This document shows positions 6,985 through 13,837 of a stretch of 64,000 nt of DNA, one piece after another. The position numbers and the translations under genes are program-made. The notes under the pieces are model-generated. The model did not search any database. It saw only the letters and a program-made list of their open reading frames with translations, and had not been told where the DNA came from. Positions within the stretch are counted from its first letter, which is position 1; every line of letters starts with the position of its first letter. The stretch spans positions 489,308 to 553,307 of the forward strand of contig NZ_PQWO01000001.1 of the NCBI RefSeq assembly GCF_003231495.1. The letters run 5' to 3'. This DNA is from Acaryochloris thomasi RCC1774. GTDB lineage: Bacteria; Cyanobacteriota; Cyanobacteriia; Thermosynechococcales; Thermosynechococcaceae.

Positions 6985-7148
6985 GTAACTCCGCAACTGC
7001 AATGCATCATTAACGGCACGGACCTAGGCTCAATTATTCCTAATTTAAATCTAAAATCTGGTCGATTTCAGCTCATATTCCGTAAATTCACTCTGAATGA
7101 ACGAGAAAGGTAGCGGTTAGGCTAACAAGGAATCATTTGGGTATTCAT

Positions 7149-7179
7149 CCCCTCATCAAGATTTTGATGAGGGGGTTTT
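7149..7179 (+). terminator. Rho-independent terminator-like hairpin
   Basis: cccctcatca-agatttt-tgatgaggggg followed by tttt. It sits between the wecB-like gene and the thrS-fragment boundary. Confidence 0.5.
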
Positions 7180-7202
7180 CTTGTATAGAGCCATCAGACA
7201 AT

Positions 7203-7436
7203 TTAAAACGCAGAATAGGTTGCGATCGCATCTCCCAATTTCTCCAGCACTTCAGCAATGGGCGTCGCTCCCAGCTCGCCTGACACACGGGTCCGAATAT
7301 TAAGGCTTTCGGCTTCAACTTCCTTATCACCAATCACCGACATCACCGGTATTTTCGCCTTCTCCGCATTGCGAATCTTTTTACCCAAGCGCTCACCGGA
7401 GGTATTCACCTGTGGTGTGTTTTGGTTGTTGCACAC
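7203..7436 (-). pseudogene. thrS: Orphan duplicate of the 3' end (last ~72 codons) of thrS
   Basis: Its translation ...NTSGERLGKKIRNAEKAKIPVMSVIGDKEVEAESLNIRTRVSGELGATPIAEVLEKLGDAIATYSAF is near-identical to the thrS C-terminus at 11118-11340. Nucleotide identity is about 80% by eye over ~225 bp. There is no upstream coding continuation. Confidence 0.8.
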
Positions 7437-8053
7437 AACTTGGAAGGTTGTTTTAAAAGCCTTGCCAAATATAGGCTTCAGAGTACAGACATTTTCATAG
7501 TTTCAACGAGAATGCTGGATTTCAGCCTTATGATTGAACGCTAACCTTCCAAGTCGTGTGTTGCAGTCTGCTCTCGTAGGAAGATTGTCAGTATGAGCCT
7601 GGTATTTCTTTCCCCTCAAGCTTGCAGTGCAGAACGATCAAGCTCACGTTGGTGCTGTGATGCCTGCTCAGGAGTTGCAAGAAAAAGCTTTTGGGATAGG
7701 CAAAAGCGATAACGGCTCATGGATGGCTTATTTGAGCAGGTGGTGGAAGCAGATTTCCAAGATCTGAAAGAATAACCGAAGCAGACAAGGAAGAAGCGCA
7801 TTGTCTGGGCTGAGTAAGGTTGCTAGAGTCAGCAGTATAAATTCGAGTAGTCCAAGAATAATGTCGAGCAGTAGGTAGAGCATGAGTCATCAGGATTCAA
7901 AACGACCCTTTGAGAATCGCTGATATGACGTAAACCCAGGGCTTCTGCACTGTACAACTTGTGTAAACGTACCGTAATAGTTTTGTACGAGATTAAGATA
8001 TCTGGCTTTGAGAACGTTAAATTAAGTCTATTGGTGCTGATTGAAACAAAATC

Positions 8054-10453
8054 ATGAACGATCTCAACCTTATCGCTACGCCTGAAGGAATTCGGCGGGC
8101 TGAGATTGCCCTGATAGAGATGCAGTTAACTAAGACCAAGTTGGCAGAGCGACTGGGATTAACTCGTCCACCAATAAGCAAGTTTTTCAATGGCAAGACG
8201 ATTAGAAATGAGAACTTTGTGACGATTTGCAAGACATTAGGGCTTGACTGGCGGATCGTGTGCGGTCTGCAACAGATTGAGACAGTTACTGATCAAGCAG
8301 CTCAAGCTCCTAAAGATGAAGATTCACTTGAGAAGATTATTCAGAATATTCGAGATGATATTCGGCCAAGAATCACAAGAAATCACGGGAAAATAAAAGT
8401 TTTAAATCTTGAAAAGCCTATTGACTTAGATGATATCTATATCAGCATTAATATCCTGGAAAAGGTAACTAGACGTAAACAACTAGAATTCATCGAAATA
8501 ATGAGGAGAAAGCCATACGACGAAGTCAATCTAACATACGAAAACGTCGAAGTTATGATTCGACAGCCAATATATCCTGATGATGTCGATCGTTTCAGTC
8601 GTGGCCCAATTAAGGAGAAACACGTACCAATTTTAGATGCAGTTAGAGATTACAAGAATCTATTAGTTCTGGGAAAGCCTGGATCTGGAAAAACAACTTT
8701 ACTGAAGTATCTTGCAGTTCAGTGTATTAGAGCAGGAATTAAATCTCAATGCATTCCCATACTCATAACTTTAAAAGAATTTTCTGAAGCCAAGGGTCAG
8801 CCTAGCTTATTAGAATATATACGCCAAGATTTTCTAGATAAAGAGAGAAAATATCTCGAAAAGCTTCTAATCAACGGGAATATATTGATTCTATTAGATG
8901 GATTAGATGAGGTTTATGTTTCTGATATATCTAGAGTGACGACAGAGATAAAGAAATTCTCAGAAAAATACATCGAGAATAGTTGCATAGTTACCTGCCG
9001 TATTGCAGCAGAAGAACACAACCTAAACTTTATAGATATAGAAATTGATGATTTGGAAGATCCAGAGATTAAAGCTTTTGCCACGAAGTGGTTTTGCAGG
9101 AATAAGAGCAAAATCAATGCAGACGATTTTCTGAAGCAATTAAAGAGTAACTCGCAAATTCTAGAGCTTGCGAAAACTCCCAAACTATTAGCATTGCTAT
9201 GCTTGATTTTTGAAGATCTAGGCAAATTCCCACATGATCGCTCAAGACTATACCGTGATGCTGTCAAAACCCTAGTTAAGCAAGAGAAAAGGGAAAAAAA
9301 TGGCAGCACACTTTATACAGAGCTTTCAATAGGACAGAAAGAAAAATTATTTAGCTATATTGCCTACGTATCATTCGTGGAAGAAAAATATTTTTTTGAC
9401 GTTGACTATGCAAAAAAAATAATTAAAAAATTCCTCATAGAATCATCTGTGCCAAATTTAGACAGACTAGATATCGATAGGTTTATGAATTATATCCAAG
9501 CTCAGAATGGGTTAATTGTAGAACGCGCACATGAAGTATATTCATTTTCCCATCTGACTTTTCATGAGTATTTTGTCTCAAGAGAAATCGTCGAAAGCAC
9601 TCACAGAGAATTATTATTACTTAATCTATCTCGAAAAATCTTAGAGAGTCGTTGGAAAGAAGTTATTTTGCTCGTTTCTGAAATGATCCCAGAGATAGAC
9701 ACTTTTTTACTGAATATTAAGCATGTAATTGATAACTCAATATCAGAGGATCAGGATATACAGAAGTTTGTTAAATGGATATATAAAAGAGCAAGTCATG
9801 AAAGTGATTTATATAAGAAAGCAGCGATCCGGGCTTTCTACTGGGGAACGGTAGGTTATGGTTGCTGTTACGCAGAAGAAATAGCTCATGCTTTTGAACT
9901 AAATTATTCTAGTTTTTCTAATTTAGACAGCATACTGATCTTCTTACTGCTTCGTTCAAAAAGTTTAGATACTCAGGGCTTGTGGGATCTTTGGGCTGAA
10001 ACTAACCTTTTCGATTATAACCGTGCTGCTTGGTCCAGGGAGTTAATTCAAGCTATTGATGTAGCCCTTTCACTTTTGTATGACCTTGATTATTCTGTAT
10101 GGAGTGCTTTGCAAAAACTTAGAGAAAATCTAACTGAATTTGAATCGTCAGATAGCGATACAGTATGGGATGAGTGGTGGCAAAGCAATGGTTCGAGTTG
10201 GGTATCTAAATTGAATGTAGCTCTGACTTCATATCTTGAAGCTGATATCTATGGAATTCATAGTGGTTTTAATAATGCCCAAACAAATTCCATAATTAAA
10301 TACTTGGAGGCTAATGCGATCCTTGTTGCTTGTTTAAAAAAATCGTCCGATACTAATTCTACAGTTCGAGAAGAAATTGAAAATACACTGCTGCTACCTA
10401 TTATCGAGATTAAAAGCTATAAATCATTCAAGAAGAAAGATATAAAACAGTAA
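8054..10453 (+). CDS. NACHT-domain NTPase (STAND family) with an N-terminal HTH; a bacterial NACHT-type antiphage candidate
   Basis: HTH-like N-terminus (LAERLGLTRPPISKFFNGKTIRNENFVTICKTLGLDW). Walker A LVLGKPGSGKTTLLKYLAVQC and Walker B ILILLDGLDEV are present. A long C-terminal region of ~400 aa is unassigned. The segment is AT-rich relative to its flanks. Confidence 0.75.
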   Translation: MNDLNLIATPEGIRRAEIALIEMQLTKTKLAERLGLTRPPISKFFNGKTIRNENFVTICKTLGLDWRIVCGLQQIETVTDQAAQAPKDEDSLEKIIQNIRDDIRPRITRNHGKIKVLNLEKPIDLDDIYISINILEKVTRRKQLEFIEIMRRKPYDEVNLTYENVEVMIRQPIYPDDVDRFSRGPIKEKHVPILDAVRDYKNLLVLGKPGSGKTTLLKYLAVQCIRAGIKSQCIPILITLKEFSEAKGQPSLLEYIRQDFLDKERKYLEKLLINGNILILLDGLDEVYVSDISRVTTEIKKFSEKYIENSCIVTCRIAAEEHNLNFIDIEIDDLEDPEIKAFATKWFCRNKSKINADDFLKQLKSNSQILELAKTPKLLALLCLIFEDLGKFPHDRSRLYRDAVKTLVKQEKREKNGSTLYTELSIGQKEKLFSYIAYVSFVEEKYFFDVDYAKKIIKKFLIESSVPNLDRLDIDRFMNYIQAQNGLIVERAHEVYSFSHLTFHEYFVSREIVESTHRELLLLNLSRKILESRWKEVILLVSEMIPEIDTFLLNIKHVIDNSISEDQDIQKFVKWIYKRASHESDLYKKAAIRAFYWGTVGYGCCYAEEIAHAFELNYSSFSNLDSILIFLLLRSKSLDTQGLWDLWAETNLFDYNRAAWSRELIQAIDVALSLLYDLDYSVWSALQKLRENLTEFESSDSDTVWDEWWQSNGSSWVSKLNVALTSYLEADIYGIHSGFNNAQTNSIIKYLEANAILVACLKKSSDTNSTVREEIENTLLLPIIEIKSYKSFKKKDIKQ

Positions 10454-10475: not shown

Positions 10476-10766
10476 ATGAGAAGAGAACAAGTCATTAACA
10501 TCCTGAAGCAATATGAACAGAATATCAAGGACTTCGGCATTAGATCTGTTTCTGTTTTCGGTTCGGTAGCCCGCGATGAAGCTCATCTAGATAGTGATAT
10601 TGATATCCTTGTTGACTTTTTAGAAGCACCTACCTTTGATCGCTATATGGATCTTAAGTTTTACCTCGAAGACTGCTTTGGACAAAGTGTTGACTTAGTG
10701 AGCTACAAAATGCTGAAGCCTCAAATTCGGCAAGCTGTCGAGAAGGAAGCCATTCGTGTCGCGTAG
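10476..10766 (+). CDS. mntA: MntA-type minimal nucleotidyltransferase (antitoxin-like)
   Basis: Nucleotidyltransferase signature FGSVARDEAHLDSDIDILVDF in a 96-aa protein. It overlaps the next gene by 11 bp. Confidence 0.75.
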   Translation: MRREQVINILKQYEQNIKDFGIRSVSVFGSVARDEAHLDSDIDILVDFLEAPTFDRYMDLKFYLEDCFGQSVDLVSYKMLKPQIRQAVEKEAIRVA

Positions 10767-11094
10767 TGTTCAGCTTTACCTTGAAGATATTTGCGCAAGT
10801 TGCACTAAAGTACAGCGCTACACTCTAAATATGACTTTTGAAGGCTTTATAGAAGACGAACGGACTTATGATGCAGTTGTTCGCAACTTACAAATTATCG
10901 GCGAAGCCGTCAAGAAAATTCCTCCTGATATTCGCGAACAGTATCCAACCGTGGAGTGGAGGAAGATTGCTGGTCTTCGCGATATTTTAGCCCATGCCTA
11001 CTTTAGTCTTGAAGACGAGACACTTTGGGATGTTGTGCTGAATAAAGTACCAGAACTATTCGAGCAAATTCAGCTCGTTATCCAAGAAAATTAA
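10756..11094 (+). CDS. hepT: HepT-type HEPN toxin (DUF86)
   Basis: 112 aa with the HEPN Rx4-6H-like motif RDILAHAYF. It is translationally coupled to the upstream nucleotidyltransferase. Confidence 0.7.
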   Translation: MSRSVQLYLEDICASCTKVQRYTLNMTFEGFIEDERTYDAVVRNLQIIGEAVKKIPPDIREQYPTVEWRKIAGLRDILAHAYFSLEDETLWDVVLNKVPELFEQIQLVIQEN

Positions 11095-11117
11095 ACAACA
11101 GATAATCTTGAGGTGAT

Positions 11118-12950
11118 CTAAAACGCCGAATAGGTTGAGATCGCATCCCCCAGTTTCTCCAGCACTTCAGCCATCGGCATCGCCCCTAACTCACCCGACA
11201 CTCGAGTCCGAATATTAAGGCTGTCGGCTTCCACCTCCTTGTCGCCAATCACCGACATCACCGGAATCTTCGCTTTCTCCGCATTACGGATCTTCTTGCC
11301 CAAGCGTTCGCCGGACGTATCCACCTGCGCTCGAATCCCCTGCGCCTGCATTTGCTCCACAGCTTTCTGAGCAAAGGGCAAGTGAACCTCACTCACCGTT
11401 AGCAAACGTACCTGCTCAGGCGCTAGCCACAGCGGAAAGTCCCCAGCATACTCTTCAATCAGAATGCCGATTAAACGCTCTAAAGAACCGAAAGGCGCAC
11501 GATGAATCATGATCGGACGGCTGCGATCGCCCTCTGCATTCACGTACTCCAGCTCAAACCGCTCCGGTAGGTTATAGTCCACCTGCACGGTACCGAGCTG
11601 CCACTCGCGATCCAAAACATCCTGGAAGATAAAGTCCAGCTTGGGGCCGTAGAAAGCGGCTTCACCAATGCCCTCAAAGTAATCCATCCCCAGCGTTTCT
11701 ACTGCGCGGCGGATCGCATTTTGAGACTTCTCCCAGGCTTCATCGGAGCCAATATATTTGTCTGACTCTGGATCTCGAAAGCTCAGTCGGGCCTTAAAGT
11801 TCTTAAGCTGCAGCTTATCGAACACCGACAGAATTAGATCAACGACTTTGAGAAATTCATCATCCAGCTGATCGGGCGTGACAAAGAGGTGCGAGTCATC
11901 AACGGTGAAGCCGCGCACTCTCGTGAGGCCGCCCAGCTCACCGGACTGCTCATAGCGATAGACCGTGCCGAATTCTGCCAGCCGAATCGGCAGATCTCGA
12001 TAGGAACGCAGTTCATTTTTATAGATTTGAATGTGGAATGGGCAGTTCATGGGCTTCATGACAAAGCCATGTTCTGAGGCGCGATCCTCGTCGTTCTCGC
12101 TCATGAGCGGGAACATATCTTCTTGATAGTTTTGCCAGTGACCCGAGATTTTGAACAGGTCCACGCGGGCAATATGGGGCGTCACCACCGGGAGGTAGCC
12201 GCGTTTTGTTTGTTCGCCCTTGAGAAAGTCTTCGAGTTGCGATCGCAACACAGTCCCCTTCGGAGTCCACAGCGGTAGTCCTGCCCCCACTAAATCAGAA
12301 AAGATAAACAGCCCTAGCTCTTTACCCACCTTGCGGTGATCGCGGCGGGCTGCTTCTTCTTTACGCCGCTTGTGCTCGGTTAACTGCTCAGGTGTTTCCC
12401 AAGCTGTGCCATAGATGCGCTGCAGTTGAGCCTTGGTTTCATCACCTCTCCAGTAGGCTCCCGCTACACTTTCGAGAGCGATCGCCCTTGGGTTGAGATC
12501 GCCTGTACTTTCCACATGGGGACCGGCACACAAATCCCACCACTGATCGCCCAGATGATAGAGCGTGATCGGTTCCTGTAAATCAGCGAGGATTTCTAGT
12601 TTGTAAGGTTCCTCTAGAGCCTTGATGCGGGTCTCAGCTTCTTCGCGGCTCACCTCTTCTCGAATCACCGGCAGCTTCTTCTTGATGATCTTCACCATCT
12701 CTTTCTTGATCGCCTTGAGATCTTTTTCGGTAAAGGCTGCAGAGGTATCGAAGTCGTAGTAAAAACCATTCTCGATCCAGGGGCCAATCGTCACCTGCGT
12801 CCCGGGGAACAGCTTTTGCACCGCCATCGCCATCACGTGCGAGGTCGTATGGCGGATCTTTTTGAGATCGTCTGACTCACTGGTGCGAGGCAGATGGATT
12901 TTTTCAGGCTGTTGCTCGGTTTGCTCTGCAGCGGACATGGGCGGCGTCAC
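11118..12950 (-). CDS. thrS: Threonyl-tRNA synthetase
   Basis: 610 aa with class II aaRS catalytic core motifs and an anticodon-binding C-terminus. Typical ThrRS segments are HRAPFGSLERLIGILIEEY and FELEYVNAEG. Confidence 0.95.
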   Translation of the reverse strand: MTPPMSAAEQTEQQPEKIHLPRTSESDDLKKIRHTTSHVMAMAVQKLFPGTQVTIGPWIENGFYYDFDTSAAFTEKDLKAIKKEMVKIIKKKLPVIREEVSREEAETRIKALEEPYKLEILADLQEPITLYHLGDQWWDLCAGPHVESTGDLNPRAIALESVAGAYWRGDETKAQLQRIYGTAWETPEQLTEHKRRKEEAARRDHRKVGKELGLFIFSDLVGAGLPLWTPKGTVLRSQLEDFLKGEQTKRGYLPVVTPHIARVDLFKISGHWQNYQEDMFPLMSENDEDRASEHGFVMKPMNCPFHIQIYKNELRSYRDLPIRLAEFGTVYRYEQSGELGGLTRVRGFTVDDSHLFVTPDQLDDEFLKVVDLILSVFDKLQLKNFKARLSFRDPESDKYIGSDEAWEKSQNAIRRAVETLGMDYFEGIGEAAFYGPKLDFIFQDVLDREWQLGTVQVDYNLPERFELEYVNAEGDRSRPIMIHRAPFGSLERLIGILIEEYAGDFPLWLAPEQVRLLTVSEVHLPFAQKAVEQMQAQGIRAQVDTSGERLGKKIRNAEKAKIPVMSVIGDKEVEADSLNIRTRVSGELGAMPMAEVLEKLGDAISTYSAF

Positions 12951-13255
12951 TTAGACCTATCTCAGGGAACCGTTCTATCTTATCGAACCTGCTGAGCTTT
13001 ATACCTACGAACATTTATCAGTACCTCCACCTGGGTGGAACAACTTAGAAAATTGTTTCAAGGCTGACGGGTCTCGCAGAGAATCATTGGCGTGTGTACA
13101 ACTCAGCTCAACACCTTTCCCTTACTAATCCTGTCTCGATAAAGCCGGTATTGGATAAGCAATGTCCACAGCACAAAATCTTAGCCATGCGTTGCATATC
13201 TTCTGAACAACCAGAGCAATGTGTACTCGTACGTGATCGTCAATGGGAGTTTCAT

Positions 13256-13837
13256 ATGCTTATTTCCACATTTGAACTACTGCTCAAATCTCAATTACCT
13301 GAACCTCCTAAGGGTGTTCCAATCGATCCAAAACTAGAAAAGCTAGGAAGAAAGATAATCCAGGGTTATTTTCTCACATTAGCAAATACGAATAGTTTCA
13401 AGATCGAGCTAGAAGTCATCTTTACTCTTAAACTGCCAAAAGGATTAGGAATCGAAAAATTTATCACCTTTGTCGATCCTGTTGGAAACAGCAAAGATAT
13501 GGCAGGAAGGATAGCTCCTATACAGAACGAAAAAGATCGCTATAAAACTGATAAGTTATCCCTAGCCTCGGGAGACACTATTCTTCTTATCTTGCAGCCT
13601 GATTTTATCAAGGATATGGATCTTCTTACTAAAGCTAACTTCGAGGCAAGAGGCTACGCAGAGCTGCGTCTTGCATCTGATAATACTCCTACAGGGAGGG
13701 CTGATGTTTTGGTCTCTGCCGAGCATCGAGGAACATTTTTCAGAAGTCTAGAAGACGGGAAAGATCTTGATATTGGTCAACTTTCCTACGGTTTAGCCGT
13801 GCAGAATAGTGGCCTTTTAACTCTCAAGACTCAGTAA
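13256..13837 (+). CDS. Hypothetical protein (start uncertain; the track ORF begins at 13094)
   Basis: ORF with no motif I recognise. AT-rich. The N-terminal 54 codons of the track ORF look non-coding. Confidence 0.3.
   Translation: MLISTFELLLKSQLPEPPKGVPIDPKLEKLGRKIIQGYFLTLANTNSFKIELEVIFTLKLPKGLGIEKFITFVDPVGNSKDMAGRIAPIQNEKDRYKTDKLSLASGDTILLILQPDFIKDMDLLTKANFEARGYAELRLASDNTPTGRADVLVSAEHRGTFFRSLEDGKDLDIGQLSYGLAVQNSGLLTLKTQ

Follow-up and report, generated by a model that had tools for sequence, protein, structure and literature searches.

The bacterial NLR-related proteins studied to date carry fused enzymatic effectors or no recognised effector. In the catalogue of bacterial NACHT (bNACHT) proteins, clade 6 includes bNACHT25 and bNACHT32 of E. 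coli (REase+NACHT+NCH1), which are antiphage and whose sensing is DnaJ-dependent, and these two are the only clade-6 members reported as tested; the proteins of clade 14 defend although no effector domain is recognisable in them (Kibby et al., bioRxiv 10.1101/2022.07.19.500537). Here we analysed a 64,000-nucleotide stretch of Acaryochloris thomasi RCC1774 (hereafter the window), in which the gene at 8054..10453 (+) encodes a STAND NTPase of 799 amino acids with a helix-turn-helix (HTH), a NACHT module and an NCH2 domain. We showed that this NACHT gene is one half of a conserved, apparently undescribed divergent pair with a small hydrophobic gene at 7728..7883 (-), and that both lie on a 3.7-kb low-GC cassette inserted at the 3' end of thrS.

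The window protein has close counterparts in architecture. Table S1 of the catalogue contains 14 NCH2-bearing rows, every one of them in clade 6, and their N-terminal slot is occupied by TIR, caspase, EAD, HEPN, Schlafen, in one row HTH, or no annotated domain; a fused HEPN+NACHT+NCH2 protein is thus included in the clade, as is the HTH+NACHT+NCH2 protein RUR88354.1 of Nostoc sp. PCC 7120 (Kibby et al., bioRxiv 10.1101/2022.07.19.500537). RUR88354.1 and the window protein are both cyanobacterial and have the same domain order at nearly matching positions (HTH 35-101, NACHT 121-613 and NCH2 689-789 against 20-66, ~120-514 and 683-782). RUR88354.1 is a catalogue entry alone, with no function, partner gene or mechanism reported, and the likeness is one of architecture. 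By this matching architecture, with NCH2 in place of repeats, the window protein probably belongs to bNACHT clade 6. It shares with bNACHT25 and bNACHT32 the clade and a helical NACHT C-terminal domain instead of repeats, whereas those two have an N-terminal PD-(D/E)XK nuclease, on which their defence depends, and NCH1 at the C-terminus; the window protein has a non-catalytic HTH and NCH2, and its likely output is a separate small gene. DNA-binding domains were classed with the 'adaptor' effectors, which are non-enzymatic and may set off a transcriptional response (Kibby et al. supplementary discussion, bioRxiv 10.1101/2022.07.19.500537).

Two further kinds of described system are comparable. 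The STAND regulators MalT, GutR and AfsR are, like the window protein, STAND NTPases fused to a DNA-binding HTH. In MalT, ligand- and ATP-driven oligomerisation controls promoter binding. However, the STAND modules of these regulators are not NACHT, their sensors are TPR or SUPR, and they bind DNA through a LuxR domain at the C-terminus (MalT) or a SARP domain at the N-terminus (AfsR); they act on metabolic or antibiotic operons. None of the Pfam families of the MalT/LAL type was found in the window protein, its HTH is N-terminal and Cro-type and its NTPase is NACHT, leaving a resemblance in working logic only. The second kind comprises SLATT, a predicted pore-forming effector of conflict systems, and CyanoTRADDas_TM. 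They resemble the partner genes described below in being small two-helix hydrophobic proteins encoded beside a sensor or NTPase gene; SLATT effectors are thought to respond to a nucleotide signal, whereas transcriptional control is proposed here for the window pair.

The NACHT protein and its catalogued architecture

The open reading frame (ORF) at 8054..10453 is real and intact from its ATG start, and a protein identical to its product is recorded as hypothetical protein C1752_00470 of A. thomasi RCC1774. A sequence-only reading of the window had proposed an N-terminal HTH, Walker motifs in a NACHT context and no recognisable TPR, WD40 or LRR behind them, and all of this was borne out. The Cro/C1-type HTH lies at residues 20-66 (8111..8251, +), where Pfam HTH_26 and HTH_3 both match above cut-off and the predicted local distance difference test (pLDDT) score exceeds 90. 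The NACHT module, composed of nucleotide-binding domain, helical domain and winged helix, covers about residues 190-514 (8621..9595, +) according to Pfam, motifs and Foldseek, and Pfam PF05729 matches residues 203-347 with 51.3 bits (cut-off 26.7). Walker A (GKPGSGKT, residues 207-214) conforms to the P-loop pattern GxxxxGK[ST]. Walker B (LILLDGLDE, residues 278-286) carries D[GAS]hDE, the signature that sets NACHT apart from other STAND NTPases (Kibby et al., bioRxiv 10.1101/2022.07.19.500537), and its residues D282, G283, L284, D285 and E286 are invariant among 40 homologues. A sensor-1-like TCR with the sensor-1 arginine (residues 314-316) and the winged-helix histidine motif FSHLTFHEY (residues 498-506) are also present. 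No TPR, WD40 or LRR family of Pfam matched the 799 residues at E<=0.01.

The AlphaFold2 model, built on 40 homologues, had a mean pLDDT of 77.6. Its best PDB neighbours by Foldseek were NLRC4, NLRP3/7/9, NOD2 and NAIP (E~1e-8, probability 1.0). When the family profile was compared with the PDB, the N-terminus matched HipB/Xre regulators (E~0.004) and the NACHT region matched NLRP3, with no other matches. The product of 8054..10453 is an intact NACHT-clade STAND NTPase related to NLRs, and the NACHT signature, whose loss on profile search the sequence-only reading had named as a point against a defence gene, holds.

The same reading had regarded the C-terminus as unassigned and the architecture as outside the textbook, and these two claims did not stand. 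NCH2 (NACHT C-terminal helical domain 2) was found at residues 683-782 (10100..10399, +; Pfam PF22727, E=3.4e-20, 72.4 bits against a cut-off of 27), inside an all-alpha region of about residues 515-799. A separate model of residues 515-799 was all-helical (pLDDT 71.8) and had no significant PDB neighbour by Foldseek (best E=0.32). Because of the NCH2 match and the lack of a significant solved neighbour, the C-terminus is assigned to a named family and not to a housekeeping fold, which had been raised as another point against defence. Homologues numbered 2,084 proteins at E<=1e-5 among the candidates examined; the named ones are nearly all cyanobacterial and the majority are full-length with about 35% identity. 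Since it is listed in Table S1 and has more than 2,000 homologues, the HTH+NACHT+NCH2 architecture is not unusual: it is catalogued and common, with its C-terminal domain already named.

Between a conserved AAVRAFY motif and NCH2, many homologues contain a D/L-rich low-complexity repeat of variable length (such as LDRALDRDLNRDLD). It was seen in P0008, P0009, P0013, P0015, P0017 and P0019, aligned to about residues 600-680 of the window protein, which itself lacks the repeat. This segment could be a hypervariable sensor segment.

In a PADLOC scan the NACHT protein matched the candidate model PDC-S60 (6.5e-13, NACHT region), with weak P-loop matches to mad8, HerA and IetA, and no clear match to a named defence system was obtained. 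The equivalog NF058535 (EruA antiphage NACHT protein) gave 38.1 bits where 1000 are required.

The divergent small gene

The gene at 7728..7883 (-), which the sequence-only reading did not contain, encodes a small hydrophobic helical-hairpin protein of 51 amino acids (MLYLLLDIILGLLEFILLTLATLLSPDNALLPCLLRLFFQILEICFHHLLK) and was recognised by family clustering and codon pattern. It is divergent from the NACHT gene, with its start 170 nucleotides upstream of the NACHT start codon. The 170-nucleotide intergenic region between the two start codons (7884..8053) presumably holds both promoters and is a candidate binding site of the HTH. A terminator-like hairpin followed by a T-run (7687..7707, -) lies 21 nucleotides past the small-ORF stop, by a consensus scan that is a pattern match only.

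For comparison with the window, loci of homologues of the NACHT protein were given L-numbers. The small ORF of the window clusters with the divergent small ORFs of L001, L021, L025, L050 and L073, and L093 also has a window-type small gene. The window-type proteins share the core ...IEF....ATWLNP......LKLCFQIL, their genes differ by 0.46/0.32/0.58 substitutions at the three codon positions, and their amino-acid identity is 47% in-frame vs 27-30% in the two other frames. A profile built from six window-type sequences retrieved 340 proteins (best E=9e-26). The codon-position pattern, the in-frame identity, the terminator-like hairpin and the 340-member family together indicate that 7728..7883 is a real gene. 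Those family members that have an organism name are cyanobacterial and recorded as 'hypothetical protein', with no Pfam domain. The family had no match in Pfam, PADLOC or PHROGs, and a profile test of the 7728..7883 product against SLATT and CyanoTRADDas_TM gave none either.

Linkage was examined in reverse using five members of the small family, picked irrespective of NACHT and found at six genomic places. In 6/6 places the small gene stood divergent beside a gene for a NACHT+NCH2 protein of 723-825 amino acids, with gaps of 29-251 nucleotides by stored gene calls, while all remaining neighbours differed from place to place. Across the wider family, a divergent ORF of 40-140 amino acids with a hydrophobic segment, starting 30-350 nucleotides upstream of the NACHT gene, was present in 35/69 loci, compared with 19/69 for the same region on the + strand, 11/69 downstream and 8% in shuffled sequence. 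In 36 loci the small ORFs can be assigned to conserved families, of which there are at least eight. One of them, family G (L008 6592-6921 (-) and L034 6521-6838 (-)), is Pfam CyanoTRADDas_TM PF20712 (E=2.6e-17) with weak SLATT similarity. Through it, HTH-NACHT loci are tied to a two-transmembrane family whose name refers to an association with TRADD-N conflict systems. In the searchable literature no description of a NACHT/small hydrophobic gene pairing was found.

These data bear on an explanation in which the window protein is a stand-alone antiphage bNACHT: it alone would sense infection and act by oligomerisation or an unrecognised activity, the HTH would only autoregulate or bind phage DNA in sensing, and the small gene would be a co-regulated accessory or a membrane anchor. 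Many defence systems carry HTH autoregulators. The defence provided by clade 14 proteins, in which no effector domain is recognisable, also speaks for such a mode of action, as do the operator searches, which demonstrated no operator, and toxicity of the small protein is an assumption. However, the position of the small gene is kept across at least eight unrelated families and in all places of the reverse test, and such consistent retention of a passenger is hard to explain. We consider the stand-alone explanation unlikely.

Two side observations concern other partners. Immediately after the NACHT gene and on its strand, L035, L043, L044, L049, L053, L070, L071 and L072 encode a conserved protein of about 240 amino acids, at -4 to 75 nucleotides past the NACHT stop in seven of these loci and at 288 nucleotides in L070. 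It looks like a second, subclade-specific partner and is cupin-like by eye. The NACHT-NCH2 relative in L060 (6824-9031) has a non-HTH, helical adaptor-like N-terminus (MADNPRLQLLNILKALPSPLFNELLYVINPP...), and its upstream neighbour is a same-strand gene of 698 amino acids, with no divergent small ORF. This single case agrees with the prediction that non-HTH forms go without the divergent small gene.

Possible modes of action of the gene pair

We tentatively read the NACHT protein as an NLR-type, ATP-dependent transcription switch that would control a small membrane effector, an interpretation that we hold with a little less belief than doubt. The C-terminal helical region including NCH2 would hold the NACHT module off until a cue is perceived; by analogy with bNACHT25 and bNACHT32 of clade 6, this cue would most likely be related to infection. 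Nucleotide-dependent oligomerisation would then gather several N-terminal HTH domains, and the clustered HTHs may alter occupancy of the divergent intergenic region of ~170 nucleotides, by which the gene of the small membrane protein would be switched on or de-repressed. The small protein would perturb the membrane and stop the cell or the phage. The arrangement would amount to MalT-like signalling logic on an NLR chassis, in which a separate, swappable small gene and not an N-terminal fusion supplies the effector.

The N-termini and the 5' regions of the relatives are informative on this proposal. Almost every locus encodes an N-terminus of DNA-binding type, mostly Cro-like and in eight cases LuxR/GerE-like by motif; the N-terminus of L060 is of another kind, and in L031 and L063 it is nearly missing. 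Among the 40 homologues the Cro recognition helix SRQP.xKFFxGK hardly varies. Non-HTH N-termini had been suspected for matches of ~75% coverage, and this was rejected as all of them have a Cro-type HTH. Within the subclade of the window, the HTH is LuxR-type and the small gene belongs to family A in both L092 and L003, while the NACHT body of L092 is 86% identical to that of L001/L093 (Cro HTH, family-B small gene) vs 73% to that of L003. Because the 5' block of L092 matches L003 and its body matches L001/L093, the small gene, intergenic region and HTH segment must have moved together as one block. Such an exchange is consistent with an HTH that recognises an operator beside its target gene. 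Tandem G[TA]NCAAGNT repeats with a period of 10-11 nucleotides were found in the loci L001 (x3), L073 (x3), L025 (x2) and L050 (x2).

Several observations weigh against the proposed switch. The small gene adjoins the HTH-coding 5' end, so physical linkage alone would give co-inheritance of the two. G[TA]NCAAGNT occurs in one copy in the window and in none in L021, and is not clearly above shuffled sequence; a k-mer enrichment for an operator against mostly coding controls returned AT-rich words only and was confounded by composition. Strict co-variation of small-gene family and HTH type was unsupported, as families A and E each occur with both HTH types, and the small-gene family tracks the NACHT body weakly (identity 62.7% vs 56.6%). 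A common origin of the small-protein families was rejected as well (hhalign probabilities <9%). The window-type hairpin has short helices with charged residues, and membrane insertion and toxicity of the 51-amino-acid protein are assumptions. No NACHT relatives were found on viral contigs, and no HTH+NACHT+NCH2 protein was found assayed in the literature. To the same side belongs a synteny among relatives: nine loci (L006, L007, L011, L013, L017, L027, L030, L066 and L076) share an SbcC-like gene of ~1008 amino acids upstream of the NACHT pair. The named ones are Nostocales and L017 is a Coleofasciculaceae metagenome-assembled genome, a pattern that points to vertical descent of a single orthologous copy in that group and not to a defence island.

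The nine sbcC loci also speak for a non-defence function, in which the NACHT protein would be a signal-transducing STAND transcription factor (cf. MalT, GutR and AfsR) and the small membrane protein would be controlled by a cue from cyanobacterial physiology or development. Among STAND proteins, transcription regulators with no immune role lie scattered between the defence clades, many of the pairs lie among housekeeping genes (glyQ, FBA, MutS, carB), and PADLOC offered only the weak candidate models PDC-S60 and mad8. On the other hand, the window copy sits on a foreign islet with a toxin-antitoxin (TA) pair, close relatives of the NACHT gene sit in TA-rich patches, and several genomes have more than one copy of the NACHT family. 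Close relatives have exchanged small gene and HTH, the C-terminal region of homologues includes a low-complexity segment that varies, and TIR, caspase, HEPN or REase effectors are found in other members of clade 6, of which two are proven antiphage. Genomic contexts of the homologues vary from locus to locus, unlike the conserved core synteny that the sequence-only reading had set against a defence gene. With these points on both sides, a purely physiological regulator seems improbable to us. Response regulators, SbcC and the ~240-amino-acid downstream protein were also tried as general partners, and their occurrence was explained by large family size or lineage-specific synteny.

An antiphage function of the NACHT gene is plausible, and the sequence-only reading was right that bacterial NACHT proteins are antiphage, with bNACHT25 and bNACHT32 in the same clade 6. 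A wider generalisation of the transcription switch would make the HTH-NACHT-NCH2 genes and their divergent small genes widespread, undescribed two-gene immune modules of cyanobacteria, in which an infection-triggered NLR-like transcription factor would govern a swappable small membrane-toxin cassette exchanged with its cognate HTH; we regard this extended claim as doubtful. HTH-fused forms are among the most abundant cyanobacterial NACHT proteins and were previously only listed, with a suggested 'transcriptional response'. The conserved divergent gene makes the idea of a transcriptional adaptor testable on one promoter region and one product of 51 amino acids. If the switch is true, it would be an NLR-like sensor that signals via gene expression in bacteria, and several unannotated small-protein families would join the candidate membrane effectors; if the protein is a physiological regulator instead, it would represent a functional switch inside a defence clade.

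The thrS islet and its MntA/HepT pair

The sequence-only reading had placed the gene beside a TA pair on an islet gained by horizontal transfer, and both points were confirmed; the repeat that defines the islet was not contained in it. A direct repeat of 212 nucleotides with 85% identity flanks the cassette. The left copy (7201..7412, -) is an orphan fragment of the thrS 3' end comprising the last ~70 codons within ORF 7203..7436 (repeat search; Pfam HGTP_anticodon, E=9e-14), and the right copy (11116..11327, -) is the 3' end of the intact thrS at 11118..12950 (repeat search, alignment and Pfam); the two copies mark the islet boundaries. Their similarity begins exactly at the stop codon and stops abruptly, and the differences are mostly at third codon positions or synonymous. 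The repeat is the scar expected from insertion of an element that brought a 3' end of the target gene with it. Composition of the two copies does not discriminate the native one. GC content is 0.36 in the NACHT gene, 0.39-0.45 in the remaining islet and 0.50-0.55 in the flanks, and the 3.7-kb cassette comprises the small gene, the NACHT gene and MntA/HepT.

No integrase was found between the repeat copies. The 315 nucleotides that separate the small gene from the thrS fragment (7413-7727, GC 0.45) contain no ORF of >=60 amino acids, and an Rfam scan of the islet, this segment included, gave no match. This segment may be what decay has left of the element that brought the islet in. Next to the orphan left fragment lies a strong hairpin terminator (7147-7176). 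Just past thrS, an ORF of 247 amino acids (13094-13837, +) had no Pfam, NCBIfam or PADLOC match.

The TA pair stands directly behind the NACHT gene. The gene at 10476..10766 (+) starts 22 nucleotides past the NACHT stop and encodes an MntA-like nucleotidyltransferase (type VII antitoxin) of 96 amino acids with Pfam Polbeta and NTP_transf_2 and a GS...DxD motif. The gene at 10756..11094 (+), which overlaps its end, encodes a HepT (HEPN) ribonuclease (RNase) toxin of 112 amino acids with Pfam HepT-like (E=3.5e-30) and an Rx4HxY motif. Together, 10476..11094 shows the GSx10-11DxD and Rx4HxY motifs in adjacent or overlapping genes by which type VII TA pairs are recognised. The pair is like MntA-HepT systems in its nucleotidyltransferase and HEPN RNase, overlapping genes and intact catalytic motifs. 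It departs from typical type VII pairs in the NCBIfam equivalog scores (MntA 47.4 bits and HepT 43.3 bits, both below the cut-off of 60) and in its location, immediately after a NACHT gene within a mobile cassette.

The tight linkage raises a three-component explanation in which the NACHT protein senses infection and frees the HepT RNase from MntA, as a split version of the fused HEPN+NACHT+NCH2 protein that exists in clade 6. In all five closest NACHT relatives (46-49% identity, metagenomes) a 96-amino-acid MntA gene lies 36-38 nucleotides downstream. The position of MntA is retained in L001-L005, L092 and L093, in settings that differ from that of the window (a suf operon, between Uma2 genes); counted as distinct subclade members, 5/5 have MntA 22-38 nucleotides past the NACHT stop, in at least four genomic settings. 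MntA and HepT are moreover 71-80% identical between loci whose NACHT proteins are 48-49% identical. Against this explanation, MntA or HepT was downstream of the NACHT gene in 0/80 loci of the wider family (31-39% identity), among which L069 has a single distant MntA on the opposite strand, and MntA/HepT as a general NACHT partner was rejected on this count. HepT is truncated in L093 (4842-5054) and L004 (3633-3896) and absent in L092 (6349-7180), with MntA and the NACHT gene intact: within the NACHT-MntA-HepT cassette, HepT decays first. The three-component explanation also has to contend with a promoter-like site just upstream of MntA, and we consider it very unlikely.

Mobile TA modules of the MntA/HepT type are very common, and for that reason co-carriage on a mobile cassette suffices as an explanation. 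The pair would be cargo that perhaps stabilises the cassette and not an obligatory component of the proposed transcription switch. The promoter-like site (10377-10404, +) consists of TTGAAA, a 16-nucleotide spacer and TATTAT with 10/12 matches, and is located within the 3' end of the NACHT gene, ~70 nucleotides upstream of MntA. Because of this site, the TA pair may be transcribed independently.

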